Shown piece by piece: positions 42,274 through 62,154 of a stretch of 64,000 nucleotides of DNA. The stretch's first letter is position 1. Each line of letters starts with the position of its first letter. The stretch is from positions 5,024,001-5,088,000 of the forward strand of contig OZ244042.1 in the NCBI GenBank assembly GCA_965215015.1. The letters run 5' to 3'. The DNA comes from Candidatus Poribacteria bacterium (GTDB lineage Bacteria > Poribacteria > WGA-4E > PCPOR2b). Below the pieces are notes generated by a model that saw only the letters and a program-made list of their open reading frames with translations, did not search any database and was not told the DNA's origin. The position numbers were made by a program, and so were the translations under genes.

Positions 42274-42948
42274 TTAAGAGACAGATATAACCTCTGGAGC
42301 AATACCTAAGAGCCAGATAATTATTGCCCCAAAACATGCCTTGGTCCTATCTGTACCGGCGAAAACACGGATGGCTATCGTCAGTACAGCGAGATACCAT
42401 AAGCTCAAAGGATTAAAGTGACTCAGAAACGTCAGCAACTTGACGCTTTCACTTGAACCCAACAGCAGATGCAACCCCGGAATTATTTTCATATCTGCTG
42501 CGCTCTTGATAGCTTCAACATCCCTAAAAACGACTAGCAATGCTGTATTAACTAGGGCTATCAGGAAGCTGATCAACGAGGTATGTACAACGGCTGAGTA
42601 GATGTGTCTAAATGTTATCGCACCATTTATCCCGAAAAGACGTGCTGCCAAGGTCAGTATCGCGCTTATAACGAGGAGCCAAATAATCGGTGCCACAAGC
42701 GAACTAATAAGAACAACTATTTGGCTAATTTTTAGTGAGATTTCAATTTGCTCAGAGGGCACTCCTCCCTCTGTCATTTGTTGGTGTATAAGCTGTTCGG
42801 TAAAGGGTAACATAGCCCACCCAACCCCAACAGCAAACAGACAAAGGATAATCATTGCCAATCCCCACTTCGGCCCCGATTTGAGGCGTGCAAACGCGGC
42901 ACTCGGTTCAGCGAGAATATCCACGATATTTTGCCAGCTGTCTTTCAT
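42274..42948 (-). CDS. Yip1-family membrane protein
   Basis: DILAEPSAAF.RL, about 5 TM segments, NPLSLWYL. Confidence 0.75.
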   Translation of the reverse strand: MKDSWQNIVDILAEPSAAFARLKSGPKWGLAMIILCLFAVGVGWAMLPFTEQLIHQQMTEGGVPSEQIEISLKISQIVVLISSLVAPIIWLLVISAILTLAARLFGINGAITFRHIYSAVVHTSLISFLIALVNTALLVVFRDVEAIKSAADMKIIPGLHLLLGSSESVKLLTFLSHFNPLSLWYLAVLTIAIRVFAGTDRTKACFGAIIIWLLGIAPEVISVS

Positions 42949-43605: not shown

Positions 43606-46600
43606 TTATTTCAGTATCAACATCCGCCGTGTCTCTGTGAATGTGCCTGCTGTCAGTGTGTAAAAATAGAGCCCACTGGCGACAGACTCACCCAGCTGAT
43701 TCCGTCCGTCCCAATATACCGCACGGTTTTGACTCTGATATATACCTGCGCCTCGATGTCCCACGGCTAAACGGCGCACTACCTCCCCGTTCATATCATA
43801 GATGGTCAGCGTGACTTCTGCCGATTCTGCTAATTGATACGGTATCCATGTCTCCGGGTTAAACGGATTCGGATAGTTTGCCAATAATGCAGTCTCTTCA
43901 GGAATCAACGCGGCTAACAGGTTTTGGAGATTTGCGATACCCTGTTTGAAGGCAAGCGACCCGTCATCTGCCACCTGTGCCTGTGCAATCCATGCCGCTA
44001 TGGTCTCAGGATTTACCCCCAGTGAGGAAGGTGCCGGGGCGGCAGGTGCTGTGGTGTTCCCGATCCCCTGCGCGATGCCGATAAGGTCAAGGATGCTGAC
44101 AACACCATCTCGGTTGACATCTACCGGTGAGTTGGGGGCCACCTTTTTCCCCAATTGCTGTGCGACGAGAATGAGATCCAAAATACTGACAACGCCATCT
44201 CGATTCACGTCCCCGGTCGCCAGGCGTCCCTCGACAGCGATGCGAATTTGACGCGGTCCTGCAGGAATAGTATCGCCGGTGATGGAGCCGAACTGGAAAT
44301 TCTGCAGCACCAACTCGGTTTCACCGGCAGATTTCGCCCTGAACCTGACCTGCAGCAGGGTGCCGGTGCCATTTACACCTTGGGCAGCCAATCGCGCCGC
44401 ACTGAGCCCTGAGATTTTACCTGCCGCGTTATCGATGCTCTTCCCCTGAAAGAAGGTGGAGCCCCCGTCTACCTTCAGGAAATCGCCTTCGTTCACGTCA
44501 ATGGCTTCGAGGGCAGCCGGGTCAAAGGCAATATCGAACTGCCAGCCTGCCAAGTCGGAGACGGTTTCGGCGCGAAGATCAAGGGTAAAGGTATCACCTG
44601 TATGAATGGGTGTCTTGGAAAAAGCGTATCCGACACCGGGGTTTGCCACTGTATATTCGGTGCCGGGTTCAAACCCGAAAAAGGCATTATACTGGGCTCT
44701 AACGGCTACCAATAGCACATTTCTTCCCTGCTTCAGTGTGACCGGCAGAGAATCCGTGTAACCGAAACTCGCATGGTAACGGAGAGACTCGTAAATCAGA
44801 GTCCCGTTGAGCCAGACCTTAAAGTCGTTATGACTGCCAACGTATAGTGTTGTGTCCTGTTGTCGTGGTGAATGCAAGGACACCGTGCCGTAGAGGCTGG
44901 CACCATCGATGTGGCCGTCAAGCATTTGGCGAACATTAGCCCAACCCGTAGGCGGGAGTGTGCGGTAGGTCCACACATCATCGCCTACAGAACTTCCCAC
45001 GGTTGCCCCATGGGTAGCAATCTCCGTCTCTGTTACCGCCCCGCCGCTCACTTCTGACAGTAAGTCCTTACTGCTACTCGGTCTTGTTTCCGGTAATACA
45101 ACCCATAACCACGGCCCCTCGATTGACGGTCCCACTTTTGGGAATCCGGGATTGTCATGCCAAACGAACGTCGTTATATTCTCGCCGAATCCCTGCAGCG
45201 GAGAAATGTCAGAAATCTCGTTGTCATGGATCACTAGCCATTTCAAGTTGGTTGCCCCTGCAAGGGGGGATATATCCGATATATTGTTGTTCGCGAGATT
45301 CATACGAGTTAGCTGTGTTAACCCTGCAAGGGGGGAGAGATTCGATATGTCGTTGTCCCGAAAATGCAGTTCCTTCAAGCCGGTTAGGCCTGCTAAAGGC
45401 GTGAGATCTGATATCTTTCCGCCGTGCATAGTTATCACCTCCAGTTTTGTTAAGCCCGCCAAGGGCGATAAATCGGATATAGAGCTGCCCCAACCACCAC
45501 TAATGCGTTTGAGGTTGATTAATCCTGAAACCGGCGACAGGTCGGAGATATTATCACTTCCCAAATGTAACACCTCCAGATTGATTAATCCGGCAATTGG
45601 CAATAGGTTAGATACCAAAGTGTGTTGAAACGTAAGGAGAGTGAGATTTGTTAAGTTCCTCACAGGAGATATATCGGATACCGAAGTGTGATGAAACTCA
45701 AGGTAAGTGAGATTGGTTAAGTTCCTCACGGGAGATATATCGGATACCAAAGTGTGCTGAAACTCAAGGTGAGTGAGATTGGTTAAGTTCCTCACAGGCG
45801 ATATATCGGATACCGAAGTATGATAAAACACAAGGCGAGTGAGATTTGTTAGGCCTCTCACAGGCGATATATCGGACAAGAGGTTGTCGTGAATCCGGAG
45901 ATCGCGCAGTTCGATCAAGCCCGCTAGCGGTGAGAGGTCGGAGACCTGATTGTCGTTAATATTTAACCGTGTCAGATTGGTCGCAAACTGCAGCCCTGTC
46001 AAATCACGGATGCCCCTGTTCGGCACATCGAGTCTTCCTAACCTTGCCATATCCTCGGCAGTAATCGGAGTATTGGGGCTCTTGTCCAGTGCCTCCGCTA
46101 TTGCCGCACGCAGGTTTGGGTCCGGGATAGACACAACCGTACCCGGTATCCCTACCGGCGGTGTTATCGCCGTGGGAGGGGTGAAACGCTCCGGGAAATC
46201 CAACGCAAAAACTATATCCCGAAAACTCGATGTCCATGTGTCCCGTTTCATACTTCCATTCTCACTGTCTAACACCAGCAAACCGATGTCCTGTAGCCCT
46301 ATATTCTCACGTATCTTTTCCAAGAACGCCCCCGGCTCTAACCCAACCGCGGCTGCGGCGTGTGCTGTGTCTACCTCCTCCTGAAATGCCTCGTGGAAAC
46401 GGGCAATCGGTTCTATATCATCAAACGCACCGCCCGTCGCTTCAAGGGCACCCCTGTACCGGTTCATATCTTCACTTATGAGCGCGTCCAGCTCTGATTT
46501 TGCCACGTAGAGCCGCAACGCCTGCGCTTTGTCATAAGTGGGGGCGGCATTACTCGCTATCACCGAACGGACTTGGTCCTCAAAGGGCTTCATACCCTCT

Positions 46601-47871
46601 GTGTGGCAACCGAAACAGGATAAACCATTCCGCACCGTCGGATCACTCGCTGCGGGATTAGAAACAATGTTTATCGGTGCCTCATTTAGGCGGAAACCGG
46701 CCCCATTGGCAAGGTAGTATCCCTGTAACCCGTTGGGTAGGTTGAAGATAACCTCACCACCATCGTGGGTGAATGACAGGGGGTGGGTGAAGATGTTCTG
46801 TGTACCCACACTCCCCGCAAAGTCGTAACTTTTCCAATAGGCACCATAGCGAGAGGTGTGGCGTTCTATCACTCGGTTGTGATTGGAGACACCCGAATTG
46901 TTGGTGCCTGCCCGCCAGACACGCACCCCCGGTGCATTTTGGAGGTTACGGACAACATCGACTTCCAATCGGGTCTCTAACTCTCTATCTGTTAATGGGA
47001 GAGAGAGTAAATCATGGTAGAGTGGAGGTAAAGAGGCTTGTGCTATAAACCAGTCGACATGAACCGATGGTATATCAGATTTCATCTCCGTCTGTAACCG
47101 GGTGAGTTGGGCCCGTAGTGCGGTCTGTGTCGGTGCATCAAACCCGATGTGATAGGGATATGCTGCTTCTATCTGCCCCCACCCATCATTGCGATCCCAC
47201 TCGTAGTGTCGCAGGTCAATGTAGAGGATGGTGCCTTGGCGGTCAATGGGTTGTGGGTTGGTGACGGTACTCCCCCATGAGAGGCTATTGACCAGTTTGG
47301 AGAGTCCGTTACGATAGCCGTCAAGAGCGCGCGTTGTCTCACCTGCGTTATAGAGGTGTGTCATTGTGAAGTACCGGGCAAAGGCACGGTCAAACGGTGC
47401 AAGCGACATGACGTGAGTCTCGATGGTATTGAGTATTTCACCGGGGGAGATAAAGCGTCTATCGGCTGCGGGGATTGCCGCCCAATCGGGTGCGCCAGCG
47501 AATATCCAGTTTCGGATGGTGGCAATCGCTTGAGTGGATAGCCGGGGTTGTCCAAGGGGCATCCGTTTGGCTATCTCAGTCGTCAGGAGCCGGTTATACA
47601 GTTCGGAGGCATTGGGGTTTCCGGGGACCACTGTCCCGTTTTCGATGAGTGAGTTGTGTTCCATTAGGAGTGTCTCTCGATAGGCACCGTCGGGTCCGTG
47701 GCAGATGAGGCAGCTCTGTTGAAAAATAGCGTAGGCATCTTGGGCAATCTGTTGTTGGGGGTATACATTTTGATAACCTACGATGCACATCAATAGACTA
47801 ATAAGTGTGATACGGTGCTGCCGTTGTTTGCAAATTCCGATCAAATAGGAAATGAAATGACGCTTAAACAT
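43606..47871 (-). CDS. Secreted multidomain protein: c-type cytochrome (2 CxxCH), internalin-like LRRs, cohesin, dockerin and FlgD-Ig/T9SS-like C-terminal domain
   Basis: CLICH, CFGCH; IPDPNLRAAI cap plus 22-aa LRRs; LAGWQFDIAFDP cohesin; GDVNRDGVVSILDL twice; NYPNPFNPETWIPYQL...SGLYFY. Confidence 0.88.
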   Translation of the reverse strand: MFKRHFISYLIGICKQRQHRITLISLLMCIVGYQNVYPQQQIAQDAYAIFQQSCLICHGPDGAYRETLLMEHNSLIENGTVVPGNPNASELYNRLLTTEIAKRMPLGQPRLSTQAIATIRNWIFAGAPDWAAIPAADRRFISPGEILNTIETHVMSLAPFDRAFARYFTMTHLYNAGETTRALDGYRNGLSKLVNSLSWGSTVTNPQPIDRQGTILYIDLRHYEWDRNDGWGQIEAAYPYHIGFDAPTQTALRAQLTRLQTEMKSDIPSVHVDWFIAQASLPPLYHDLLSLPLTDRELETRLEVDVVRNLQNAPGVRVWRAGTNNSGVSNHNRVIERHTSRYGAYWKSYDFAGSVGTQNIFTHPLSFTHDGGEVIFNLPNGLQGYYLANGAGFRLNEAPINIVSNPAASDPTVRNGLSCFGCHTEGMKPFEDQVRSVIASNAAPTYDKAQALRLYVAKSELDALISEDMNRYRGALEATGGAFDDIEPIARFHEAFQEEVDTAHAAAAVGLEPGAFLEKIRENIGLQDIGLLVLDSENGSMKRDTWTSSFRDIVFALDFPERFTPPTAITPPVGIPGTVVSIPDPNLRAAIAEALDKSPNTPITAEDMARLGRLDVPNRGIRDLTGLQFATNLTRLNINDNQVSDLSPLAGLIELRDLRIHDNLLSDISPVRGLTNLTRLVFYHTSVSDISPVRNLTNLTHLEFQHTLVSDISPVRNLTNLTYLEFHHTSVSDISPVRNLTNLTLLTFQHTLVSNLLPIAGLINLEVLHLGSDNISDLSPVSGLINLKRISGGWGSSISDLSPLAGLTKLEVITMHGGKISDLTPLAGLTGLKELHFRDNDISNLSPLAGLTQLTRMNLANNNISDISPLAGATNLKWLVIHDNEISDISPLQGFGENITTFVWHDNPGFPKVGPSIEGPWLWVVLPETRPSSSKDLLSEVSGGAVTETEIATHGATVGSSVGDDVWTYRTLPPTGWANVRQMLDGHIDGASLYGTVSLHSPRQQDTTLYVGSHNDFKVWLNGTLIYESLRYHASFGYTDSLPVTLKQGRNVLLVAVRAQYNAFFGFEPGTEYTVANPGVGYAFSKTPIHTGDTFTLDLRAETVSDLAGWQFDIAFDPAALEAIDVNEGDFLKVDGGSTFFQGKSIDNAAGKISGLSAARLAAQGVNGTGTLLQVRFRAKSAGETELVLQNFQFGSITGDTIPAGPRQIRIAVEGRLATGDVNRDGVVSILDLILVAQQLGKKVAPNSPVDVNRDGVVSILDLIGIAQGIGNTTAPAAPAPSSLGVNPETIAAWIAQAQVADDGSLAFKQGIANLQNLLAALIPEETALLANYPNPFNPETWIPYQLAESAEVTLTIYDMNGEVVRRLAVGHRGAGIYQSQNRAVYWDGRNQLGESVASGLYFYTLTAGTFTETRRMLILK

Positions 47872-47924
47872 AGGGAGTGTCTCCTTATAGATAGTTTTTC
47901 TGAGGCCTTTGCTGGGTATCAGCT

Positions 47925-48794
47925 TCACTTACCCCCATTTTTTTGAGAGTTGTAATGTTGGTTGTTTTTGAGAGTTTTAGATATGAGAAAGGGTTGTCAG
48001 ATATGGTAAAATACCTCCCTGTCTAAAACCTATCTAAAATAACCATTGTTTTAAACAAGGAGGTATTATGAAAGGCACCCACCGCCATAAGCCGGTGAAT
48101 CCCAGTTCTATGATAACCACTCTGACCGAGATTGTCAACCCCGTATTGAAAAGACCGGCGTTAAAAAACCTGATACTCAACAGATTCCGTTTGTCATCCG
48201 GGTGTGTCGTAACGCGCGTATGACCGTCTGGGGAACTGTTAAAAAGGCAGAACAGTTGCAGGCAACGGGCTTCTATCCACAGATTCTCTATCACTTAACC
48301 GAGCAGATTCGACTCAACCTGTATGTCGTCAGAGAGGCGCGGTTTGCTGAACCGATGCATCTGATTTCAAGTCATCTGACGGGGTGTCAAATACACCACT
48401 ATTATAAGCGAAGAATGCAGATTGAACACGGCTTTCGGGACATCAAGACCGGCTTTGGCTTTGGCAGCTTGAGACTCAAAAAACCGTCAAAAGCCCGCAT
48501 CAACCTGTTATGGCTCTTAGCTTGTCTCAGTTATGGCTTACTGTTTATCACTTATCAAAAGTCAGGAGACCGATGGGCAAAAGCATTCAACACACGGACA
48601 AAAATCTACTCACTGATTACGGTCATAAAGCGAGTGGCTGCTGAGGCATGGCGCGGGTGGTGTCTCAATCCCTGGTTCACACTCCCACTGTGCAGGGGAG
48701 ATACATACAAACACACTTAATGACAACTATTCTCACTATCCTAACTCATAAAAATACATCAAATCTATACACAAAAAAAAATGGGGGTAAATGA
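47925..48794 (+). mobile_element. IS4-family element, internally deleted, with 20-bp TIRs
   Basis: TIRs TCA(C/T)TTACCCCCATTTTTTT at both ends; transposase start at 48068 (AAGGAGG RBS) is out of frame with the C-terminal part carrying YYKRRMQIEHGFRDIK (YREK motif). Confidence 0.8.
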
Positions 48795-48847: not shown

Positions 48848-48876
48848 TTGTCTTTCTTTGGGCACCATGCCATAAT
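48848..48876 (+). promoter_or_regulatory. Sigma70-type promoter, near-leaderless DUF488 operon
   Basis: TTGTCT-17 bp-CATAAT with an extended TG, 11 nt before the ATG; no SD sequence. Confidence 0.45.
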
Positions 48877-48887: not shown

Positions 48888-49445
48888 ATGGAAAAATTAC
48901 AAAATCCCATCCCTATTTACACCATCGGCTACGGCAGCCGTTCGATCGAACAGTTTATCGAAGTGCTACAACAGCATAAAATTGCCTACCTTATTGACGT
49001 GCGTTCAACTCCCTATTCTCGCTACAAACCTGAATTTTCCAGAGAGGCACTAGCGGCGGAGCTACAACGACACCGGATTCGGTATGTGTTCATGGGAGCC
49101 ACACTGGGCGGGCAGCCCGATAACGAAGATTGTTATGATGAGAACGGACAGGTAGACTACCAAAAAGTGAAGGATACCAAAAACTACCAGAGGGGGATTG
49201 AACGTCTCCAAACGGCTTTTGATCAGCAACAATGCGTGGCTCTCATGTGTAGCGAGGGCAAGCCGGAGCAGTGTCATCGGAGCAAACTCATCGGAGCATC
49301 GCTCGATGAACAGGACATCTCCTTGATTCACATTGACGAAAACGATGAACAGCAGACACAGGAGAAAGTCATTGACAGACTAACGGGAGGACAACTGCGG
49401 CTGTTTGGTGAAGACACATTCCACTCGCGCAAGCAGTACCGGTAA
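48888..49445 (+). CDS. DUF488 family protein
   Basis: IYTIGY, LIDVRS.PYS, LGG, ALMCSE..PEQCHR. Confidence 0.92.
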   Translation: MEKLQNPIPIYTIGYGSRSIEQFIEVLQQHKIAYLIDVRSTPYSRYKPEFSREALAAELQRHRIRYVFMGATLGGQPDNEDCYDENGQVDYQKVKDTKNYQRGIERLQTAFDQQQCVALMCSEGKPEQCHRSKLIGASLDEQDISLIHIDENDEQQTQEKVIDRLTGGQLRLFGEDTFHSRKQYR

Positions 49446-49451
49446 TTTGCC

Positions 49452-49940
49452 ATGAAACCTAAAATTGTCACCATCGGCGTATACGGGTTTGATGAAGATA
49501 GTTTCTTTGCCGCTTTATGCAAGGCAAAGGTGGATACCTTCTGTGATATTCGCAACCGGCGGGGTGTGCGGGGTTCAACCTATGCGTTCGCTAACAGCCT
49601 GCGTTTGCAAGGACGGCTCGCAGAACTCGGTATCCGCTACATCTATCGCAAGGACCTCGCACCCACCAAAGCGGTTCGGGATAGGCAAGCGGCAGCGGAT
49701 AAAGCGACGAAAACCGCCAAACGCAAACGCACAGCATTAGGAGAGGCGTTTATTACGGCGTACCACACCGAATGCCTCGCAATGTTTGACTCACACAATC
49801 TACTAGAAGACCTTGAAGAGGGCACACAGGTTGTAGCTCTCTTTTGTGTTGAAAAAGATCCCGAGGCGTGCCACCGCTCGCTGGTAGCAGATAAACTAGC
49901 AAAAGAACTGAAACTGGAAGTGGAGAATATTGTGCCATGA
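49452..49940 (+). CDS. DUF488 family protein (second subtype)
   Basis: IVTIG, CDIR, LAPT, LFCVE.DPEACHRSLVA. Confidence 0.9.
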   Translation: MKPKIVTIGVYGFDEDSFFAALCKAKVDTFCDIRNRRGVRGSTYAFANSLRLQGRLAELGIRYIYRKDLAPTKAVRDRQAAADKATKTAKRKRTALGEAFITAYHTECLAMFDSHNLLEDLEEGTQVVALFCVEKDPEACHRSLVADKLAKELKLEVENIVP

Positions 49941-52438
49941 AAGTCCTGATTGTCGCCAAAACCCGACTGGGCAGCGGCGTGTGTATAGGCGCAATTACAG
50001 AAGAGGGTGAAAGTGTGCGGCTCATCCCGTTCAACGAAGATTCGCATGACAGAGCGAATCGAGAATACGAGATTGGAGATGTTTGGGAGATTGCCTCGAG
50101 ACCAGAGACGTCTCTGATCCCGCCCCATAACGAAGACATTAGGGTTCGTGAAAAGCGGTATCTTTACCTCGCAAGCGCGAGCGAGTTGGAAGGGGCTATT
50201 GAACGCTTCATGCCGCCGAAAATCGGGGGGCCAACCGTGCTTTATGAGGGCTTGTTGCAATCGACAGGAAGTGGTGCCCTCTACATTGCCAAGCAGAATG
50301 ATATCCCACCGTACAGCACGACGTTTTGGCGACCGGATCAGCCGCTCAGTCGTGATACGGAAGGAAAGCGCGTGCGGTATCGCTATCCTACCAACAATGG
50401 CGGTTCTACACTGACCTTCGTTGGTTTCCAAGAACCGCTTGAAGTCATTCCCGCAGGCACACTCATGCGTGTCTCTCTAGCACGTTGGTGGCGACCAGAA
50501 GATACGCCAGATGCAGAGGGATGCTGTTACGCACAACTTTCTGGCTGGTTTCTCGCAGAAGAACCTAAACGTCCCATTGAAGTGGAATCTCCTCGACCTC
50601 AAACGCCGCTTCAAACGCCCTTAGAAATTCTCAAAAATGTTTTTGGGCATGAGGCGTTCCGACCATTACAGGAGCAAATCATCAACCATATCTTCAACCG
50701 GCACGATGCGTTGATTGTTCTGCCGACGGGGGGGGGTAAGTCGCTTTGCTACCAGCTCCCTGCCCTTATCTTCGAGGGCGTAACCGTTGTTGTATCACCG
50801 CTGATTTCGCTTATGCAGGATCAGGTAATGCAGTTACAACAGAGGGGTATTCATGCCGCTTTTCTCAACAGCACTCTCAGCCATCCAGAATATATTGCTA
50901 CGATGCAACGTGTCAGACAGCGGGAAGTCAAGCTACTTTACGTTGCTCCTGAAACGCTCATGCGACCTGAAATTTTGTTGATGCTTGATGAATCAAATGT
51001 GGCATGTCTGGCGATTGATGAAGCTCACTGTATTTCACAGTGGGGGCACGATTTTCGTCCAGAGTATCGACAACTGGTTTCCATTCGTGAACGATTCAGG
51101 AACGCTGTCTGTGTTGCACTCACAGCTACTGCTACACAGCGAGTTCGACAGGACATCAAACAATCGCTCACAATTCAAGAGGGAAATGAGTTTATTGCCA
51201 GCTTTAACAGAGAAAATCTCTTCATCGCCGTTGAACCGAAGGTTGATTTGTCTAAGCAAACGCTGGAGTTTCTCAATGCCCACCGTCATGAATCGGGCAT
51301 CATCTACTGTCAAACGAAGAGGCGGGTTGAATCCTTGTCTCGTGAACTAGTTGAACAGGGAATTTCGGCACTCCCCTATCACGCAGACTTGGATAGCGAA
51401 ACGCGCAAGCAGAATCAGGATGCCTTTATCAACGGTGATACTCAGGTAGTAGTGGCAACAATTGCCTTCGGTATGGGGATTGATAAAGAGGATGTGCGCT
51501 TCGTGCTACATGCGGGTTTGCCAAAGGAACCTGAATCTTACTATCAGGAGATTGGGCGTGCCGGACGAGACGGAAATCAGGCAGAGTGTCTATTACTTTT
51601 TAGCTATGGCGATGTAAACACCATCCACCATTTCATCGATCAGGGCGCGCCCTCTGAGCAAGAAGGGCGATTGAAACGCTTGCAGACGCTTGTTAATTGG
51701 GCAACTTCTACAGCGTGCCGCCGCAAAGGGGTACTGGCTTATTTTGGAGAGCAATACGAGAATCACAATTGTGGGATGTGTGATAACTGCTGCCAAGCGG
51801 AAATGGACCGGGTTGATTTGACGATACCCGCTCAAAAATTTCTATCATGTGTTGTTAGGACGGGTCAGATTTTTGGGGAAGTGTATATTATCGATGTCTT
51901 GCGCGGATCAAAAGCGCAAAAGGTTATTAAGAACGGTGCCGATAAACTCTCCGTCTACGGCATCGGTACGGAGTACAGCAAAGAACAGTGGAAACGTCTG
52001 GCGTTACAATTTCTCCAATATGGTCTTCTTAATCGAGATTCACAACATGGGAGCCTGCGTTTGACGCAGAGAGGATGGGCAGTACTCAAAAGTAAAGAAC
52101 AGTTCCAAGGGGTTCCGGTGAATTCGGTAAACCACATGGCTGAAGAACCGAATACTTATGAAAAGACCGCCGAAAAATCAAACGAATACAACCATGAACT
52201 TTTCGAGCAACTTCGCGCGACCCGCAGAGAGTTAGCAGATGCTGAACATGTCCCGCCATACATTGTTTTCCAAGACAGGCCGTTACGAGAGATGGCTGCC
52301 CAATTACCACAATCGGTGGAAGCATTCATACAGATTCACGGCGTCGGTGCTGCGAAAGTTGAGAAATACGCCGATGTTTTTTTGCCTATCATTCGCGCCT
52401 ATTGCCAAGAACACGGATTGATGGACGGGAATCGGTAA
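49937..52438 (+). CDS. recQ: Dual-OB-fold domain fused to a complete RecQ helicase (helicase-Zn-RQC-HRDC)
   Basis: N-term VLIVAKTR..SGVCIGAI...VRLIP...PPHNED; then LPTGGGKS, DEAHCISQWGHDFRP, QEIGRAGRDG, CGMCDNC, PPYIVF HRDC; ATGA coupling to the DUF488 gene. Confidence 0.88.
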   Translation: MKVLIVAKTRLGSGVCIGAITEEGESVRLIPFNEDSHDRANREYEIGDVWEIASRPETSLIPPHNEDIRVREKRYLYLASASELEGAIERFMPPKIGGPTVLYEGLLQSTGSGALYIAKQNDIPPYSTTFWRPDQPLSRDTEGKRVRYRYPTNNGGSTLTFVGFQEPLEVIPAGTLMRVSLARWWRPEDTPDAEGCCYAQLSGWFLAEEPKRPIEVESPRPQTPLQTPLEILKNVFGHEAFRPLQEQIINHIFNRHDALIVLPTGGGKSLCYQLPALIFEGVTVVVSPLISLMQDQVMQLQQRGIHAAFLNSTLSHPEYIATMQRVRQREVKLLYVAPETLMRPEILLMLDESNVACLAIDEAHCISQWGHDFRPEYRQLVSIRERFRNAVCVALTATATQRVRQDIKQSLTIQEGNEFIASFNRENLFIAVEPKVDLSKQTLEFLNAHRHESGIIYCQTKRRVESLSRELVEQGISALPYHADLDSETRKQNQDAFINGDTQVVVATIAFGMGIDKEDVRFVLHAGLPKEPESYYQEIGRAGRDGNQAECLLLFSYGDVNTIHHFIDQGAPSEQEGRLKRLQTLVNWATSTACRRKGVLAYFGEQYENHNCGMCDNCCQAEMDRVDLTIPAQKFLSCVVRTGQIFGEVYIIDVLRGSKAQKVIKNGADKLSVYGIGTEYSKEQWKRLALQFLQYGLLNRDSQHGSLRLTQRGWAVLKSKEQFQGVPVNSVNHMAEEPNTYEKTAEKSNEYNHELFEQLRATRRELADAEHVPPYIVFQDRPLREMAAQLPQSVEAFIQIHGVGAAKVEKYADVFLPIIRAYCQEHGLMDGNR

Positions 52439-52679
52439 GAGATGCTAGTGGTCACCAACGGAAAGCGGAAATGCTTTAGTGCCTTCCATGCTGCATCGGC
52501 TTGCCGGAACGTAAGGAAAGTGTGCATCAGTCGATATCCGTCCTTTCGGATTGGGCAAGCCGGAGGTAATCGTCGGTTCGGCCGGATTGAAAATACAGCT
52601 CAAGCAGGAGCCTAACAAGTGTAGTGAGTAGAGGTTCAAGAGAGAATGCTGTCCGGAGCGTGAATGTAGGTCAACAGGG

Positions 52680-52745
52680 GCGAGGCAGGCAATATGTTTA
52701 CAATCTCCTCCCCAGTCGTATGGGCAAGAACAGCGGTAGCGTCCG
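52680..52745 (-). pseudogene. SWIM zinc-finger gene fragment
   Basis: RCSCPYDWGGDCKHIA motif with no plausible start or continuation. Confidence 0.55.
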
Positions 52746-52773
52746 AAGTGGACGTTTTGGGAACATGACGTGT

Positions 52774-53868
52774 TCACTCCCAACCGAAGGTAGTGCGTAC
52801 GTATTGATGAGATGCCTGCCGGAGACCATACCACCTATCCTTTCCCCAAATTTCTAGGGGCAGGCTTGAATGCCCTGTGTCTTCCTTCAATTCCGCTTGG
52901 ATAAGCCGCTGGGCTTCTCGCGAAGCACCACACAGCACAATAGCCCGTGCTTCAATACCACCGAGTTGCCTCATCCGTAAAATAGCCTCCATCCCTTTTT
53001 GTTTCACCACGGCATGTTCATAAGCAAGGGTGCACGAAATGACAACAATTTCGTACCCCAGTACTGCAACCACGTCAAGTTCAAAAGGTTTAACGCTTGC
53101 GTCTGTCGCGCCGGCTCGCCGCACAAACACCCTGTGGAAAAGTTTATAGTTCTGTCGATCTGGGCTCCGCCGAGAAATATCTGTCAAGGCATACTGAAAA
53201 GCGTCATACGCACCGTATTCAAAAAAGTTGGGGGTGAGAGTCCAATCGTTCCTCAGGGCCGCAAAACCTTTAGCCAACTGTTGTTCGCTGAGGGTTCCGG
53301 GGGCCGGGCAGTCTTTCGTCTGATTGTTACCCGAATCATCCCAGTATTCGTAAGAAAACGGACCGATTTCAAAGCCGTTGAGTTCGGCAATGCGACGCAG
53401 ACATGGCTCGACTCCCTTCCGGGTATCTGAGACTAAGGCATTTCCCGCCCGGTCCATGAGGGCCGCGCCTGAGTCAGCCCGTGCATCTAGATAGGAGGTT
53501 TCTAAGTCAATAGTTGTCGATAAAGCGGCTTTAACAACTTCTGCAGCTGCAACAGTTTCAACGCACATTACCTTGGTGCCGCCGGTGTAGTGCACATGAA
53601 TGCGATTGGTATTGGCAGGTAGGTTGTTCTTGAGATTCCGTGTAATGTCGTCGCGTACAGTGGATGGGTTCCCAGACACCGTTTCAACAGCATCAATAGA
53701 AAACGCGTTGCGGCAATACTGCAGCAACCGGTCCCGCTCCGCCTTTGTTTCCTCCGTATGCACAAGTCGTACATGAATTGGATGGGGCAGGTTATCTTTC
53801 AAATGATGCAGTGCCACCCAGACAGGTAGCGGATTGGTTCCAACGGTAAGAATAAGGAGTGTTCCCAT
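52774..53868 (-). CDS. CARF + PD-(D/E)xK nuclease effector (Card1/Can2, DUF1887-like)
   Basis: LTVGTNPLP and HYTGGTK CARF motifs; FELDVVAV.GY..VVISCT nuclease core; QLGG.EAR. Confidence 0.8.
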   Translation of the reverse strand: MGTLLILTVGTNPLPVWVALHHLKDNLPHPIHVRLVHTEETKAERDRLLQYCRNAFSIDAVETVSGNPSTVRDDITRNLKNNLPANTNRIHVHYTGGTKVMCVETVAAAEVVKAALSTTIDLETSYLDARADSGAALMDRAGNALVSDTRKGVEPCLRRIAELNGFEIGPFSYEYWDDSGNNQTKDCPAPGTLSEQQLAKGFAALRNDWTLTPNFFEYGAYDAFQYALTDISRRSPDRQNYKLFHRVFVRRAGATDASVKPFELDVVAVLGYEIVVISCTLAYEHAVVKQKGMEAILRMRQLGGIEARAIVLCGASREAQRLIQAELKEDTGHSSLPLEIWGKDRWYGLRQASHQYVRTTFGWE

Positions 53869-54038
53869 AACGGCAGTTTCTCCGTTTTTTTTCAAGACGG
53901 TCAACAAATGCTTGCCGGCCGCGGAAAATGTTGCTTTTGTATTGCGGCATCTTTAGAGGTTCTTGGGTGGTTTAGGTGAAGGGTAACGAGCGAAGCGGAA
54001 GTTTCGGAACATAGGAGGAGTTAGGGTTTTATTTTTTT

Positions 54039-55298
54039 CTATGTCAATGTCCTACCAACGAGCCTGTCAAGATCTGTCAGAATACCTTGGACCTCGCAAA
54101 TATCTGCTTTTGCCGAACTTTTAATTGACCGACCTCGCAGATTCCGGATTGGCATTCCGCAATGAGCGAGTTCATTTCTCAGATTTCTCGCCCGCTCCCA
54201 CAACTGTAGACACCAACTCCTTTCTGGAAAATTCCCACCCCCTAAAATAGCAAAAGGATTACCTTCTGATTTGGCATTGACCCAAAGATTGAGGTCCTTT
54301 TCAGTCTTTTCACGATCACTACTCTTCAACCAATCACGTTCAAGTTGAACGCAAGTCCATGAAATGAGCCATTCCCGGGTTAAGGTAACGGCTTGTAGAT
54401 ATTGTTGATTCTCAGCGTACCATTGAATCTGTTTGTGCTGCTTCCGGAGACTTTCACAGTCATTGTTTGGATACGTCGGATTCTGAAGGGCAAGCGGTTG
54501 GTAGGAGGCTTGGATTTGTTCGATAAGTGTATAGAAAGGTTGAACCCAGGTCGCAACATTACTTTCCGCTCCAGCAAGAGAATTAGACAAATCTACCGCC
54601 GCTTTTTGAACCTCCAACGTTCGATTTGTCATCAACGCTTCTGAGAGTTTTTCTAATATTCCTGACACCCTCAATAGACCAATTGCTATTCTCTCTTCAT
54701 GGAGCTGTTTCTGAGTGTTACTCAATAATTCTGCAATCGGGCGAGCATCCCCGGTCCGTTGGAACATTGTCACAGCTCCAAGCCAGTCAAGCAAGCTGAC
54801 GAATGGAGTTAGATCAAAGACTGGCTTTTTTGGATTACTTCGTTCTACTGCCTCATAAGCCCCATAGATGACTCGTTTAATCTCCACGCCACTTTTGACA
54901 TTACGAACGTAGGCAAGGGCGAGAAATGTCAAAAACGGAAGTGAACGGAAACCATGTGTGATATCGAAAAGCACCCTGTCATTATCCTGAATCTTGTCAA
55001 CAACGATATTGAAGATTTTCCACAGTTCCGTTTCGTCTGCTCCTTCTGGAATTGAAACAGGAACCACTTCCGTTCGTTTACCCAGTAATTCACTCAGAAA
55101 TGCCAACCGTCCGGTCGAAATCTTATCTGAAACGGGTTCCTGTGCTGCCAAATCGGTAGTGAACATATACAACAATTCTGGCTCGAAAAATTCGACAATC
55201 GCTTCAGCAAAAAACCGAGTTTTGCACGACTCCCTTCCTTCAAAGGTGTAGATACTTTCGTAAAGGGGGCCAATTCCTAGGAATGTGAAGGCTTTCAT
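54039..55298 (-). CDS. csx1: Csx1 (TM1812/TIGR02221 type) CARF-HEPN ribonuclease
   Basis: FTFLG, FDITHGFRSLP (DxTHG), RNELAH HEPN motif; AAGGAG RBS. Confidence 0.9.
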   Translation of the reverse strand: MKAFTFLGIGPLYESIYTFEGRESCKTRFFAEAIVEFFEPELLYMFTTDLAAQEPVSDKISTGRLAFLSELLGKRTEVVPVSIPEGADETELWKIFNIVVDKIQDNDRVLFDITHGFRSLPFLTFLALAYVRNVKSGVEIKRVIYGAYEAVERSNPKKPVFDLTPFVSLLDWLGAVTMFQRTGDARPIAELLSNTQKQLHEERIAIGLLRVSGILEKLSEALMTNRTLEVQKAAVDLSNSLAGAESNVATWVQPFYTLIEQIQASYQPLALQNPTYPNNDCESLRKQHKQIQWYAENQQYLQAVTLTREWLISWTCVQLERDWLKSSDREKTEKDLNLWVNAKSEGNPFAILGGGNFPERSWCLQLWERARNLRNELAHCGMPIRNLRGRSIKSSAKADICEVQGILTDLDRLVGRTLT

Positions 55299-55396
55299 GC
55301 AAGTTGGCTCCTTGAAAACTTCATAATAGTTTCCGTTATCCAAACGCTGAGCTATAGAATCACCTTGCCAATTTTTCCTGTTCCATCAACCATTCA

Positions 55397-56692
55397 TTAC
55401 CTATATTCCCAAAATGTAAGCGTTCCCTCGTCAGCGTTCGGTGTGTAATGAAAGTGTGATGGAACGACAACCGATTCAAGGTTCCCATCACTTTCTTCGA
55501 GTTGATTGGAAATCCCTATCAACTCCTCTTGTACACCCACCAATTCGTCCGATGGTAATTTTTTAAGGATTTTGCGAAATGTGGTACTGTAGGTAAGCCG
55601 TGGCAGTTCCAAAATTCTTGACGAAATCAGACTCGCTTTTAAATTATCCCAGATCCATTTTCCAAAGTCCGATACCATCGCATAATCCTCGACCGGGGTA
55701 ATCAAGGTTTCGTGGATTCCGGTTAATTGGCTCCGTTCAATAAATTCGTCTCGTGTCGCAACCTGGGCCAACTGCGCTGCACAATTTTTTACTGATGTAA
55801 TGTCAATTAACTGTGGGTCGGGATTGGATCTGTTTGGGGAGGAAAACTGTGCACAAGCCTCGTCAAGACTAATTTGCTGCGGCTTCTCGGGATCTTCTCT
55901 AGGTGGAATCTGAAAATTCTTGTCAAGTCTGAAACTGCGCGAAACTTTATTGCGAGATGCCCTGCGGAAATACCCGTATCCGACAGCGGTCTTTGCTCCC
56001 AAGCCCTTGTCTTTTAATGTTTTGTCAACCCAATCTTGGGTGGTGTCAATCAGAGCTTGTTCCTTCGCCAAGATCACAAATCGAAAAGCTGTTTGCCCAA
56101 CAGTCAAAAAGTTAATTGGGATTGGATTCTGCGTATCCGTAGGTAGCTTTGTACCTGTGTAGTAATCAGGAAAATGCGGATTCATTATATCAAGCGAAAG
56201 AGTTACATTGTCTATCGGATAAGCAGGGAGAAATTGTACATCTCCCGAGGATTCTTGGCTGCCGAAAACAGAAAGAAAATTACCGTCTTTCATTGCCAAA
56301 CTTTCCTCGTTACCGAACTTCTCCTGAATTACCCAACTCCGCACAACACCCTTAAAGGCACTTCCAGGGATATAAGGGATACCGTAGACATGGTCAAGCG
56401 TCATGTTAGTTTCCTGAACATGTTCGCCACCAAGCCCGATAATCATCCGCCAATCTACCTCGTAGAACTCACAGAAATAGCGGTAACTCTTTATCAGATA
56501 ATTAAGTTGATTCGTTTGACGATCTCGGAGATGAGCAATCGCCCTCTGTGAATCGCCAAGTTCCGTTGATTCAATTGAAAACTTAACTTTTCCATCTTCA
56601 TAATTCAAGAAATACTGATAACGGAGCGCAAAGTTTGAAATTTGATTTCGATTAACGAGGTTTCGCGTGTCAGAAGGACAATAAATTTGCAT
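55397..56692 (-). CDS. cmr6: Type III-B RAMP Cmr6 with ~190-aa C-terminal extension
   Basis: GIPYIPGSAFKG, DIMNPHF, NPIPINFL, GLGAKTAVGYG; the ORF continues 189 codons past the G-rich loop. Confidence 0.92.
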   Translation of the reverse strand: MQIYCPSDTRNLVNRNQISNFALRYQYFLNYEDGKVKFSIESTELGDSQRAIAHLRDRQTNQLNYLIKSYRYFCEFYEVDWRMIIGLGGEHVQETNMTLDHVYGIPYIPGSAFKGVVRSWVIQEKFGNEESLAMKDGNFLSVFGSQESSGDVQFLPAYPIDNVTLSLDIMNPHFPDYYTGTKLPTDTQNPIPINFLTVGQTAFRFVILAKEQALIDTTQDWVDKTLKDKGLGAKTAVGYGYFRRASRNKVSRSFRLDKNFQIPPREDPEKPQQISLDEACAQFSSPNRSNPDPQLIDITSVKNCAAQLAQVATRDEFIERSQLTGIHETLITPVEDYAMVSDFGKWIWDNLKASLISSRILELPRLTYSTTFRKILKKLPSDELVGVQEELIGISNQLEESDGNLESVVVPSHFHYTPNADEGTLTFWEYR

Positions 56693-57090
56693 CAGTTATC
56701 CCCCTCCACCTCTTTCATTAGTCCATCAACGAAACGCCGAACCCAATTCAACAATGCCAACGTCTCTATCGTAATCCGGCGATATTCGTTGGAGGACTTA
56801 CGAATGACAACCTCAACGAGTTCGCTATTTTCATCCAATTTAATTAGCTGTTTGTAGGCTAGCCATTTGCCAATCGTATCATATAATTTTGTGTTTCCGT
56901 CATCTCGCTTGTTGATGAATGCCAATGCCTGTCCAAGCCCATTGGTTTTAATTAGCACTGGCAGTTTTTTCGCACCGGATTTGTACTTTTTCTTTAGATC
57001 TCCGTTAGAATTTTGGGCTATCTCCTTAACGCGATCATAAGCGAAGGCCGCACGTCCCTGTTCAATGCCTCGGATGCTGTTTTGGTTCAT
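56692..57090 (-). CDS. cmr5: Type III-B small subunit Cmr5
   Basis: EQGRAAFAY, KKLPVLIKTNGLGQALAF, EYR..T.ETLALLNWVRRF. Confidence 0.92.
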   Translation of the reverse strand: MNQNSIRGIEQGRAAFAYDRVKEIAQNSNGDLKKKYKSGAKKLPVLIKTNGLGQALAFINKRDDGNTKLYDTIGKWLAYKQLIKLDENSELVEVVIRKSSNEYRRITIETLALLNWVRRFVDGLMKEVEGDN

Positions 57091-57100
57091 TTCTGCCTCC

Positions 57101-58075
57101 TTAATCTTCGTAAATTTTCGTCCTAACAATCCCTTTACCGATTGTTGCGTTCCCCCCCAGTTGAATTACATCTGGCAGCCCGTCTTCAAAGAATTCCATC
57201 ACCTTTTTCGACTCATCGTGCTTCTCCTCTTTCTCCTGATCTGTCAACTGGAAGATGCCTTTATCGGCACCATTTTCCTGAAAGATGGGTGTGGTTAAGG
57301 CGAGCGAGTAAAGAATCGAATCGGAGGGAAGATATTCTTCGTACCACAAAGCACCCTCTTGCACAGTTCCGGTTTCTTGGTTAATCTTGATTCGTGCGAT
57401 GACCTCCGTTGAGAGCGTGACGAAATCGCGAAAATCATCATCACTCAACACAACGAGATCTGTCCGCATTTTTTCGCGCCAATAACTGTACTCGTCATCC
57501 GCAGGTAGGACCCGTTCTGAGAGCCAATTTGCTAACTCATTTACGGTCTGATTGGTTTCAACATCAAAGGTGTACTCTTCTAGCACAATCTTTTTATCAG
57601 CGACAATAAGATTTGAGTCATCGGGGAGGCAGTTGGTGCTCGTGATGGAGTGTTGGAAGTCTGTATTACAGATTTGAAGGTCCTGTTTGAACCGCTCAAG
57701 CACAGCAGGGCAGGTTATCCACCCAAAGACACCCGCAACTGACTTGACAGGAAAAAGCAGCAAGCGAGCATCGGTAAATCCTAAGGCCCCTGCGTACAGA
57801 TCGCCTTGCTCAGGGCCAAACGTTAAACTAATAGCTTCCTTGTAGTTTTCATCCTTTTCAGAAGTGATGTTCCAGCCGCGTTCAAGCTGTGCCAAATTGG
57901 GCTGGGTGCTGAAAACTTCCCGAATCCCACCCTTGATGCCAGATGCCTCGATCTTGGGATAGTCCGTATGTTTTTCGCGTTGGATCGGCAAATCAACGAT
58001 GCCGAGATCGCTACCACTTCCCGCGTGCAGTGATGTTTCAACGATTAAAAACATAGGCTTTGCGGATTTGAACAT
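57101..58075 (-). CDS. cmr4: Type III-B RAMP Cmr4
   Basis: LHAGSG...VDLPIQRE (catalytic Asp present), DARLLLFPV, GALWYEEYLP, QLGGNATIGKG. Confidence 0.95.
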   Translation of the reverse strand: MFKSAKPMFLIVETSLHAGSGSDLGIVDLPIQREKHTDYPKIEASGIKGGIREVFSTQPNLAQLERGWNITSEKDENYKEAISLTFGPEQGDLYAGALGFTDARLLLFPVKSVAGVFGWITCPAVLERFKQDLQICNTDFQHSITSTNCLPDDSNLIVADKKIVLEEYTFDVETNQTVNELANWLSERVLPADDEYSYWREKMRTDLVVLSDDDFRDFVTLSTEVIARIKINQETGTVQEGALWYEEYLPSDSILYSLALTTPIFQENGADKGIFQLTDQEKEEKHDESKKVMEFFEDGLPDVIQLGGNATIGKGIVRTKIYED

Positions 58076-58092
58076 AATGGTCTCCTTCATCA

Positions 58093-59184
58093 CTATTTTG
58101 ACACTGCGCCAACGTATGCAAGCCCAAACCCCTCCTGTGTACGTTGGTCGCCAATGTTTTTGTAATGCAAACAATCTAAAATTGCATCGGTTTTTTCGTC
58201 GTTGATCAACCGAAAATAGTAAACACTCCCAGCAGGTACCGCGCGATACGCCTGTTTGGGACGGCGGTGTGCAACATCCCAACCCCCAATAGTCACGTAA
58301 TTCCCTACCGCGGCAGTAATTAACTCAATATCCCCGTAAAAACACTCAGGCAACCAACCATCATTAAAAATCGCATGGGTTGCTAAATAGAGTTTGAATT
58401 TTCCAGAGTCACGCACCATGTCTCGGATTGTGGAACGGTCATCAACCGAAATCGGGTCAGGCTTCTGGGAAGCTACCTCGTAGGTAAAACCTTTGCCCTC
58501 GCCGCCAAGTTTTATCAGTCCACTTTTAGGAAGCCGATCAATTCCATCAACATCAACGACAAATCCGAATTCCGAATTGCGGAAGCGTTTCAGGTTAATT
58601 CGATAAAGCATACTTTCGTCAGTTGCCAGCGTTCTGTGGCTTCGGGCGATACCCACCTTCGGTTCATCCATGATAAAACTCGACTCTTCTGATGTTAGGC
58701 CCGAAGTTTCACCGAGCAGATATTTCCGCAAGTTATCGTACGAGATATAGCCACCTGCATGTTCAACCTGCATTTCGGAATTGTCCCATGTCAGGAGGGT
58801 GGACAATTTGGAACTTGAAGGAAACGTGTCGTGCTGTGATTCGATCGATAGCGGATATAGTATCGCGTTTCCCGATTTCTTTTCGGATACCAAGTCGCGT
58901 GGGGTTGGATAGTAAAGAGGTCCATCGCCGCGTCCTAAAAACACTCCCTTGATTTGGATTGATGCACCCGCGAGCGACTGTTTTGTACCAATAATTGATT
59001 TCATCTCACCACTGGTAAACTGTGCCATATCGCCGCAGAAAGCGATATAAGCGGTTCGCAATGCACCCATTACAGTTGAAGGAAATGGAGTGTCAATTGA
59101 GTAACCCTCCGATTGCTCTCCCCGTGTAAAGGGACGGCCATCTCGGAAGAAAAAGGTATCATTCGGTTTCAGAAACAGTCTCAT
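58093..59184 (-). CDS. cmr3: Type III-B Cmr3
   Basis: P.DTFFFRDGRPF, PFPST..GALR, LGGEGK, GGWD, AVPAGSVY, GFG. Confidence 0.93.
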   Translation of the reverse strand: MRLFLKPNDTFFFRDGRPFTRGEQSEGYSIDTPFPSTVMGALRTAYIAFCGDMAQFTSGEMKSIIGTKQSLAGASIQIKGVFLGRGDGPLYYPTPRDLVSEKKSGNAILYPLSIESQHDTFPSSSKLSTLLTWDNSEMQVEHAGGYISYDNLRKYLLGETSGLTSEESSFIMDEPKVGIARSHRTLATDESMLYRINLKRFRNSEFGFVVDVDGIDRLPKSGLIKLGGEGKGFTYEVASQKPDPISVDDRSTIRDMVRDSGKFKLYLATHAIFNDGWLPECFYGDIELITAAVGNYVTIGGWDVAHRRPKQAYRAVPAGSVYYFRLINDEKTDAILDCLHYKNIGDQRTQEGFGLAYVGAVSK

Positions 59185-61066: not shown

Positions 61067-61075
61067 TATGCATTC

Positions 61076-61885: not shown

Positions 61886-62052
61886 TGTGCTCTCCTTGAA
61901 CTGGACTTTAGTCATCCAAAGCAGTAAAATCCGTGAAATTACTTCAACACGTCTAAAATTTTGTTAAAAAAATTGCCATTGAAATACAGTTCACATATCA
62001 TCACACGGTTTAAGTTACATCTCCCGAACACTTTGCAATTTTCTAGAAATGT

Positions 62053-62081
62053 AGCATAATACATCCCTACTTTAATGTCAA
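62053..62081 (-). promoter_or_regulatory. Sigma70 promoter of the cmr operon
   Basis: TTGACA-17 bp-TATGCT upstream of cmr1. Confidence 0.6.
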
Positions 62082-62112
62082 CACTTTTTTCCGAGCGTAC
62101 GGAAATCCGAAC

Positions 62113-62138
62113 GGGCAATAAATTGCCCTACTACAAAC
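62113..62138 (-). repeat. GTAG-type REP-like palindrome (GTAGTAGGGCAATTTATTGCCC)
   Basis: Related copies near 23934 and 33917 (GTAG..GCAATTCATTGTGCG). Confidence 0.6.
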
Positions 62139-62154
62139 CAGGGGGTTTTCCGCT

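Follow-up and report, generated by a model that had tools for sequence, protein, structure and literature searches.

Modules that combine DUF488 and DuOB proteins are widespread and have been catalogued computationally, and experimental work on them is absent from the searchable literature. PADLOC candidates such as PDC-M45 were nominated from homologues embedded in BREX, DISARM or type I restriction-modification (R-M) systems (bioRxiv 10.1101/2024.01.29.577857). PDC-M45 is itself a computational prediction, its name occurs in no main text of the searchable literature, and no anti-phage experiment was found there. For the DUF488-N3 and DuOB systems of the RapZ-C-DUF488-DUF4326 clade, Burroughs and Aravind reportedly predicted, in 2023, DNA-end processing in virus-host conflict. 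The subject of this study is a three-gene operon, DUF488a-DUF488b-DuOB::RecQ, at positions 48888-52438 of a 64,000-nucleotide stretch from the genome of a Candidatus Poribacteria bacterium (the window; assembly GCA_965215015.1, contig OZ244042.1, positions 5,024,001 to 5,088,000, forward strand). The reading put forward here, with somewhat less than an even chance of being right, is that the operon encodes a clamp-anchored, RecQ-driven complex that processes DNA ends or gaps for genome maintenance. An earlier reading of the same DNA from its letters alone (the sequence-only reading) had implied that the module was novel, but its parts are already held by Pfam (DuOB, DUF488, DUF488-N3a) and PADLOC (PDC-M45B/C). 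New here are the findings that the insertion sequence (IS) and CRISPR surroundings are secondary insertions and that the genomes sampled from the order have no canonical RecQ other than the fused one, together with a controlled in-silico docking of the DUF488a tail to the cognate clamp.

The operon resembles PDC-M45 in that genes B and C are present as DUF488a and DUF488b: DUF488a matched PDC-M45B at 7.3e-52 and DUF488b matched PDC-M45C at 5.5e-12, the latter gene matching PDC-M19A slightly better (3e-13). Stand-alone DUF488a-DUF488b-DuOB cassettes on viral contigs gave PDC-M45B/C matches too. Unlike the nominated loci, the operon studied here has its DuOB partner fused to a full RecQ and is not embedded in BREX, DISARM or R-M systems, and the adjoining cmr block was inserted and is missing in close relatives. 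The fit to PDC-M45 is also incomplete, because no PDC model was matched by any of eight DuOB sequences. The DuOB part of the source protein matched no PADLOC model at all, and one of the other seven sequences gave a single weak match, to Cas5_IIId (0.0016); PDC-M45A was not among the 25 of 46 PADLOC families listed for the whole 833-aa protein. Likeness to the DUF488-N3 and DuOB systems extends to the Pfam models DuOB (PF22557) and DUF488-N3a (PF22751), which both match, and the Cys motif and phosphatase-like fold of the proteins are consistent with their classification in the rhodanese-phosphatase superfamily. A role in conflict is not favoured by the synteny at this operon.

A canonical RecQ fused to a tandem-OB domain

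All three genes lie on the forward strand: DUF488a at 48888-49445 (185 aa), DUF488b at 49452-49940 (162 aa) and DuOB::RecQ at 49937-52438 (833 aa). DUF488a and DUF488b are separated by a 6-nt gap (TAA-tttgcc-ATG), and DUF488b and DuOB::RecQ share a 4-nt ATGA overlap, exactly the layout of open reading frames (ORFs) that the sequence-only reading had given. By this arrangement DUF488b and DuOB::RecQ appear to be translationally coupled behind the first gene, DUF488a. A consensus scan found a promoter-like site on the same strand at 48848..48876 (TTGTCT-17 nt-CATAAT, with a TG upstream), and its -35 element, the TGnCATAAT and their distance to the ATG recur in 11 of the 13 upstream regions aligned from relatives. 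The DUF488a mRNA is probably leaderless or nearly so, because the predicted -10 hexamer ends 11 nt 5' of the DUF488a ATG. The IS4 and leucine-rich repeat (LRR) insertion described below lies upstream of this predicted promoter and has left it intact.

The helicase part (50660..52438) was identified by Pfam and by the NCBIfam recQ equivalog TIGR01389 as a complete RecQ, which bears out the sequence-only reading on this point. Its Pfam domains follow in the order DEAD (50660-51145, residues 242-403), Helicase_C (51263-51574, residues 443-546), RecQ_Zn_bind (51605-51793, residues 557-619), RQC (51806-52105, residues 624-723) and HRDC (52196-52393, residues 754-819), and TIGR01389 was matched over residues 230-822 with 733.7 bits against a cut-off of 640.2. 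The motifs GGGKS (265-269), DEAH (361-364), GRAGRDG (540-546) and C594...C612-x2-C615-x2-C618 are all present, and the nearest solved relatives are the RecQ proteins of D. radiodurans (4q47, 4.7e-128) and E. coli (1oyw, 4.1e-127). Judged by this domain set and these motifs, the fused helicase is a canonical RecQ. It departs from 1oyw and 4q47, with which it shares the full domain set and the catalytic motifs at E ~1e-127, by an additional 204-aa N-terminal tandem-OB domain, by its coupling to two DUF488 genes, and by C-termini that vary among orthologues, with one to four HRDC-like repeats, Sipho_Gp157 or DUF3276. Such tandem repeats, one to four in number, were seen in many Poribacteria-labelled loci (e.g. 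L036, L038, L044 and L045); Sipho_Gp157 follows HRDC in orthologue P0051 and stands in its place in P0053 and P0124, and DUF3276 was seen in orthologue P0054.

A separate housekeeping recQ, for which the sequence-only reading had proposed a search, was found neither in the source genome nor in the wider set of genomes. The source genome is a single contig of 5.94 Mb in which only the fused gene passes the TIGR01389 cut-off and has both RQC and HRDC; its remaining members of the RecQ family, of 600 and 639 aa, carry DEAD, Helicase_C and the RecQ zinc domain without RQC or HRDC. Among 41 genomes of the same order, the source genome included, no DuOB-less full-length RecQ was found, and every TIGR01389 match that reaches past the helicase core sits at the DuOB-fusion locus. 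The fusion is present in 22 of these 41 genomes, and is split into two pieces in two of them (G015 and G040).

The N-terminal part of the protein (residues 1-204, 49937..50548) matched Pfam DuOB (PF22557) at 1.8e-22, with 80.9 bits against a cut-off of 27 and over profile positions 1-210 of 210. An AlphaFold2 (AF2) model built from a 61-sequence alignment (predicted local distance difference test, pLDDT, 94.1; predicted template modelling score, pTM, 0.89) shows two successive beta-barrel-like sets of strands, so that the dual-OB-like N-terminus proposed from the letters is upheld by the profile and by the tandem OB folds of the model. Foldseek placed the tandem-OB HIN-200 domains of AIM2, IFI16, p202 and MNDA first among Protein Data Bank entries (E 3e-5, probability 1.0, template modelling score, TM, 0.30-0.38), followed by Teb1, BRCA2 and RPA, and a second structural aligner matched OB1 (residues 1 to ~94) to the OB folds of BRCA2, mitochondrial SSB, TEBP and RPA with Z scores of 6.5-7.8 while barely covering OB2. 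DuOB is thus like the tandem-OB binders (HIN-200, RPA, BRCA2, TEBP) in having two consecutive OB folds, the first with Z up to 7.8 to OB folds that bind single-stranded DNA, and unlike them in its low TM (0.30-0.38), its identity of ~10% and its own invariant set of Trp, Cys, His and acidic residues. The likeness seen in the model is to be taken as one of fold only, with no common descent or function shown. T9, P63, E66, W131, G163, R178, S180, C197 and Q200 do not vary across the 61 sequences, and C16, H64, D67 and several Trp hardly do; such fixed residues, polar and Cys/His ones among them, are unusually many for a plain OB domain. A Pro-rich linker (50549..50659, no Pfam match) joins DuOB to the helicase core. 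It is not of constant length, since the two matches stand 31-277 nt apart in orthologues.

In order to gauge how far the arrangement extends, public loci were collected by scanning one genome per species, which gave 440 DuOB loci; counts out of 80 refer to the best 80 of these 440. By record title the best 80 comprise 43 Poribacteria, 23 from Chloroflexota classes, five Latescibacterota, five Verrucomicrobiota, one Terriglobia and three other or unspecified. The order DUF488b-DuOB-RecQ is kept in all 80, and DUF488a is present in 77, the remaining three being cut by contig ends. DuOB and RecQ share a single open frame in 77 loci, under several phylum labels, and the other three look like frame breaks, so the fusion is not a one-off chimera, a possibility that the sequence-only reading had raised against itself. 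All nine loci from related genomes have the order DUF488a-DUF488b-DuOB-RecQ with the spacing of the source operon. A word-indexed search with residues 1-215 against proteins of 458-1458 aa returned 943 clusters at E <= 0.001 among 2269 candidates, and all 120 of the 943 that were listed carry DuOB and DEAD-helicase domains. An exhaustive search of representatives at 50% identity returned 743 DuOB clusters at E <= 0.001, most of them stand-alone proteins of ~200-230 aa, although 11 of the best 150 reach 800 aa or more. Few relatives of DuOB lie on viral contigs: a scan of IMG/VR yielded three loci, in which DUF488a, DUF488b and DuOB occur together and none has RecQ.

Two DUF488 proteins and a clamp-binding-like tail

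Both small proteins matched Pfam DUF488 (PF04343; cut-off 22.2), DUF488a at 3e-25 with 89.6 bits and DUF488b at 5e-13 with 50.1 bits. DUF488b also exceeded the threshold of DUF488-N3a (PF22751; 31.7 bits vs 27), and DUF488a fell below it (20.6 bits). The putative active-site motif is CSEGKPEQCHR in DUF488a (residues 121-131, 49248..49280) and CVEKDPEACHR in DUF488b (residues 132-142, 49845-49877). The Cys motif that the sequence-only reading had noted in both proteins recurs as C-x-E-x5-C-H-R in 77 of 77 distinct DUF488a and 81 of 82 distinct DUF488b orthologues. In alignments of 55 orthologues, C121, E123, P126, C129, H130 and R131 of DUF488a are invariant, as are C132, V133, E134, P137, A139, C140, H141 and R142 of DUF488b. 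The latter is an arginine-rich paralogue with eight further invariant Arg, which suggests that its ligand may be phosphate-rich.

Sequence searches of solved structures gave nothing for DUF488a at E <= 1 and chance-level matches only for DUF488b. The DUF488a AF2 model (pLDDT 88.5) had no Foldseek match at E <= 0.001 (best E 3.3e-3), and an exhaustive structural comparison placed the N-domains of tetrapyrrole methylases at the top (Z 9.1-9.6). A second group is formed by Cys-dependent phosphatases of the protein tyrosine phosphatase (PTP) and dual-specificity phosphatase (DUSP) fold at Z 6-8.5, a range in which likeness may mean only a common arrangement; among them are KAP (8.5), laforin (8.2), an archaeal PTP (7.7), PRL (7.4), Siw14 (7.1) and a baculovirus RNA 5'-phosphatase (6.6). 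The modelled fold would be consistent with DUF488a being a Cys-phosphatase-fold enzyme of the Rhodanese/PTP-like Rossmannoid type. The rhodanese-phosphatase superfamily paper of Burroughs and Aravind from 2023 reportedly pairs likeness to methylase N-domains with likeness to PTPs. The DUF488 and DuOB literature searched held no functional study of the DUF488-DUF488-DuOB-RecQ module. E. coli yeaO came up in a CRISPR-adaptation screen, where an odd spacer pattern was not reproduced by its authors (PMC11879090), and this was given no weight. DUF488 proteins are also matched in seven of 14 control genomes. The source genome itself has a third DUF488 match outside the window (G000:C1:4656882-4657037), which covers profile positions 2-52, contains an in-frame TGA and is probably a broken gene.

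The last 40 residues of DUF488a read H-I-D-E ... R-L-T-x-G-Q-[LM]-x-[LMI]-F ... F-x-S-R-K-x-Y in every orthologue displayed, and contain a clamp-binding-like motif, QLRLF (residues 169-173, 49392..49406), singled out by conservation and by predicted docking. This tail, which the earlier reading did not mention, is by the alignments a conserved feature of DUF488a: H148, I149, D150, G168, Q169 and S180 are invariant among the 55 aligned sequences, F173, R181 and K182 are present in at least 90% of them, and of 77 distinct tails 67 fit the strict pattern Q[LM]x[LMI]F and all fit a looser one. Two pentapeptides of this kind, QLSLF of PolC and QMGLF of DnaE, are measured clamp-binding motifs in B. 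subtilis (PMC12309361). The pLDDT of the tail is 64-79, against 87-98 in core blocks 2-16, which is as expected of a flexible docking peptide. In common with beta-clamp clients, DUF488a ends in a flexible stretch that bears a Q-[LM]-x-[LMI]-F pentapeptide, and this is predicted to lie at DnaN 170-175, 241-246 and 359-364. It differs from these clients, which are polymerases and repair enzymes, in that its globular part is a DUF488 domain and in the conserved F-x-S-R-K-x-Y that follows the motif, for which I know of no described counterpart.

Complexes were predicted for DUF488a (55-row alignment) together with two copies of the source genome's DnaN (30-row alignment), alongside three controls. 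The DUF488a-DnaN complex scored 0.70, a value reached by 116 of 157 solved complexes and two of 215 mismatched pairs, whereas the best of the three controls scored 0.00; contacts agreed to at least 95% among the three runs, with a pLDDT of at least 87 for the partner. The predicted interface comprises residues 92, 163, 166-174 and 177 of DUF488a and residues 147, 149-150, 170, 172-175, 241, 246, 274, 276-277, 279, 319, 343, 345, 359 and 361-364 of DnaN, which correspond to the canonical peptide-binding cleft where domains II and III adjoin. Since clamp-peptide complexes have already been solved, passing this prediction would mean that the tail resembles known clamp motifs to the model, and is not proof of binding. 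With that qualification, the DUF488a tail probably hooks onto the DNA sliding clamp, and a clamp-like tail would move the likely site of action to clamp-loaded DNA, that is, to forks, gaps and primer ends.

A six-frame search of the genome for a C-terminal Q[LM]x[LMI]F[GD] returned two ORFs besides DUF488a, one for an AAA_21-type ATPase and one for a fusion of DNA methylase and Mrr; neither is a classical clamp client, and so they provide no calibration of the motif. In two public loci, short ORFs (48-62 aa) hold copies of the final 35-45 residues of DUF488a, motif included (L053:9118-9264; L061:9662-9850 and 12438-12587). They lie a few kb downstream of the operon and are apparently duplicated 3' gene ends.

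Insertions and decay around the operon

The sequence-only reading had placed the operon between an IS4 element and a cmr locus and had given weight to this setting. The cmr locus is indeed there, but of the IS4 element only a C-terminal remnant of an IS4-type DDE transposase remains (48202-48720, forward strand, profile positions 140-198 of 200). It is accompanied by a 1440-aa LRR protein of secreted type on the reverse strand (43606-47928), with LRR repeats, cohesin, dockerin and FlgD-Ig domains, a Por_Secre_tail-like end and an N-terminal cytochrome-c-like motif. Downstream, and likewise on the reverse strand, profile matches delineate a type III-B cmr1-6 locus (52774-63930) with three CARF effectors, namely a CARF-PD-(D/E)xK protein (52774-53907), a CARF-HEPN Csx1 (54039-55343) and a CARF-HEPN-CARF protein (62155-63930). 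Residues 296-408 of the Cmr6 ORF (55397-56692, reverse strand) match a CARF7-RelE model, and a 129-aa ORF (52445-52834, reverse strand) with no Pfam or PADLOC match abuts the recQ stop and overlaps the start of the CARF-nuclease ORF.

In the closest relatives (L023, L024, L025, L028, L029 and L031) a creatininase / Fe-ADH / PQQ-propeller / radical-SAM / Yip1 block, or the part of it that was reached, runs up to the operon. Yip1 ends ~200 nt before DUF488a in L028 and L031, and in L024, L028 and L031 a pair of PQQ-propeller genes begins no more than a few hundred bases after RecQ. The source genome has the Yip1 orthologue at 42274-42948 and the two PQQ orthologues at the window-equivalent positions 64364-67144. 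Because these orthologues lie just outside them, the LRR gene and IS4 remnant (43606-48720) and the cmr/CARF block (52445-63930) are insertions that flank an older, resident operon. The former accounts for ~5.9 kb between Yip1 and DUF488a that are absent from close relatives, and the latter separates recQ from the PQQ genes, its neighbours in L024, L028 and L031. The cmr, CARF, LRR and IS4 proteins recur in none of the 80 loci, except for cmr1 and cmr2 in L031, where they stand on the opposite side of the operon. The two blocks are private to the source genome and the conserved neighbours are ordinary genes, so the weight placed on the IS4/cmr setting falls away: the IS and CRISPR genes on either side came in recently and reveal little of what the operon does.

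A second stable context was seen in Poribacteria-labelled loci, with SpoIIE-GNAT upstream (L036 and L049; SpoIIE alone in L053) and AAA_35-miaA downstream (L036, L040, L044, L049 and L056). The four nearest ORFs were then scanned at 36 loci (144 ORFs; L065 was left out). No mobile, toxin-antitoxin (TA) or defence-like domain was found among them at 27 loci. The other nine have neighbours of these kinds, namely SMODS with S_4TM in L053, DNA methylases in L062 and L079, Uma2 in L079 and L101, TnpB in L047, SocA in L072, PIN in L091, MazE in L027 and IS4 with Sipho_Gp157 in L030. A recognisable defence pair, SMODS with S_4TM, thus stands among the four nearest ORFs at one of the 36 loci only.

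Within the genus, 12 of 20 genomes have the operon, two retain only remnants at the syntenic site, and searches of the other six did not find it. In G002 (L134, G002:C1:4594000-4608000) DUF488a is frameshifted, DUF488b is intact, DuOB is reduced to residues 1-134 and RecQ is gone, and in G017 (L136, G017:C1:218000-232000) DUF488a is intact and DUF488b breaks off after its first 29 codons. Neither G008 nor G014 has the operon at this site, and in each a lone, distant DUF488 gene lies within a few kb of Yip1 (L135:3780-4260 and L137 ~11395-11826, respectively). These are 26-28% identical to DUF488a, and the G008 copy matches Pfam DUF488 at 1.5e-24.

Possible roles in genome maintenance, defence or marking of DNA

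The reading preferred here is that the operon encodes one DNA-processing machine that would act on the cell's own clamp-loaded DNA at stalled forks, gaps and primer ends. RecQ, a 3'-5' helicase, would open the duplex, and the fused tandem-OB DuOB would hold the exposed strand or the junction between single- and double-stranded DNA. The two Cys-dependent, phosphatase-fold DUF488 enzymes would then act on a phosphate- or sugar-linked group at the DNA terminus, removing or transferring a blocking group, with DUF488a held at the site by its C-terminal peptide on the beta sliding clamp. That the substrate is DNA is suggested by the presence of RecQ and a tandem OB, and it is plausible that RecQ feeds substrate to the DUF488 enzymes, whereas complex formation, the DUF488 chemistry and the physiological role are what I infer. 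The fusion is the only form of canonical RecQ in the lineage, which argues for a dispensable role in genome maintenance rather than a dedicated anti-phage one; stable chromosomal synteny and rarity in viral contigs argue in the same direction. Several observations weigh against this reading. Both DUF488 genes match phage-defence candidates, the phage-related Sipho_Gp157 domain sits at the C-terminus of some DuOB::RecQ orthologues, nine of the 36 scanned loci have mobile, TA or defence-like neighbours, and the operon is dispensable and decaying within the genus, as the counts above show. The Z scores of DUF488a to phosphatases fall in the ambiguous range noted above, and the searchable literature held no biochemical activity for any DUF488 or DuOB protein. 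Clamp-binding motifs reportedly occur on transposases as well, so that a clamp tail alone does not mean repair.

The main rival, possible but on the doubtful side, is that the operon is an anti-phage defence system, a RecQ-armed form of PDC-M45, in which the clamp tail and the OB folds would detect or gain access to phage DNA as it replicates. Unwinding by the helicase would then let the DUF488 enzymes alter or degrade the ends of that DNA, so that the phage could not replicate. The strong PDC-M45B match (7.3e-52) and the weaker PDC-M45C match (5.5e-12) favour it, given that such candidates are predicted from being embedded in known defence loci, and so do the conflict role reportedly predicted for the clade, the patchy presence and decay remnants in one genus, the nine loci with defence, TA or mobile neighbours, the Sipho_Gp157 domain of some orthologues, and the cmr genes next to the operon, inserted downstream of it in the source genome and on its opposite flank in L031. 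However, a helicase that is the lineage's only canonical RecQ and passes a housekeeping equivalog cut-off is hard to square with dedicated defence, as are a stable synteny with ordinary genes, in which the window's defence genes were inserted later, and the 27 of 36 loci that are free of such neighbours. The source operon also lies outside BREX, DISARM and R-M systems, the eight DuOB sequences matched no PDC model, and the searchable literature held no phage test of any member.

An unlikely alternative is a DNA-modification or nucleotide-salvage module that marks rather than repairs, the DUF488 enzymes installing or removing a sugar-phosphate, thiol-linked or ADP-ribose-like adduct behind the fork on single strands exposed by RecQ and DuOB. 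Two distinct, apparently active Cys enzymes would suit a two-step transfer better than simple hydrolysis, the DUF488a fold is as near to the N-domains of S-adenosylmethionine (SAM)-dependent methylases as to phosphatases, clamp tethering would suit replication-coupled marking, and DuOB has more invariant (T9, E66, R178, S180, C197, Q200) and near-invariant (C16, H64, D67) polar and Cys/His residues than is usual in a plain OB domain. Nevertheless, the flanks conserve neither a cofactor-binding motif nor a biosynthetic partner gene, no reader or restriction partner is linked, and there is no direct evidence for any adduct. It is very improbable that the genes are co-transcribed but functionally loose, with an ordinary RecQ to which DuOB adds DNA affinity and DUF488 enzymes in an unrelated metabolic role. 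DUF488 is widespread outside the operon (seven of 14 control genomes) and most DuOB proteins stand alone at ~200-230 aa, as such a loose association would have it, but order and coupling are kept in 80 of the best 80 loci under several phylum labels, the genes appear translationally coupled, they decay jointly at the syntenic site in G002 and G017, and the cassettes on viral contigs hold DUF488a, DUF488b and DuOB together.

Returning to genome maintenance, a more specific and more speculative version, doubtful as it stands, is that the operon represents an undescribed form of replication-coupled DNA-terminus repair, in which clamp-anchored Cys enzymes clear or transfer a block at 3' ends or gaps exposed by DuOB-guided RecQ. 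The RecQ-linked form would then be ancestral and housekeeping, and the stand-alone defence or mobile cassettes would have been co-opted later. If true, this would give a first biochemical role to DUF488, a family present in many bacteria and including E. coli YeaO, and a new set of dedicated partners to bacterial RecQ. DUF488 and DuOB are widespread families (743 DuOB representative clusters, 440 genome loci), and their biochemistry should be approachable here: with RecQ in the same polypeptide as DuOB, two apparently active Cys paralogues and a predicted clamp-docking tail, the substrate would be DNA unwound 3'-5' where the sliding clamp sits. The window is also a caution that flanking IS and CRISPR genes can be a poor guide to the role of an operon. 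Whether that role is repair or phage exclusion, establishing it would tell what a catalogued defence candidate does, and would show how RecQ has been specialised in Poribacteria, Chloroflexota and their neighbours.

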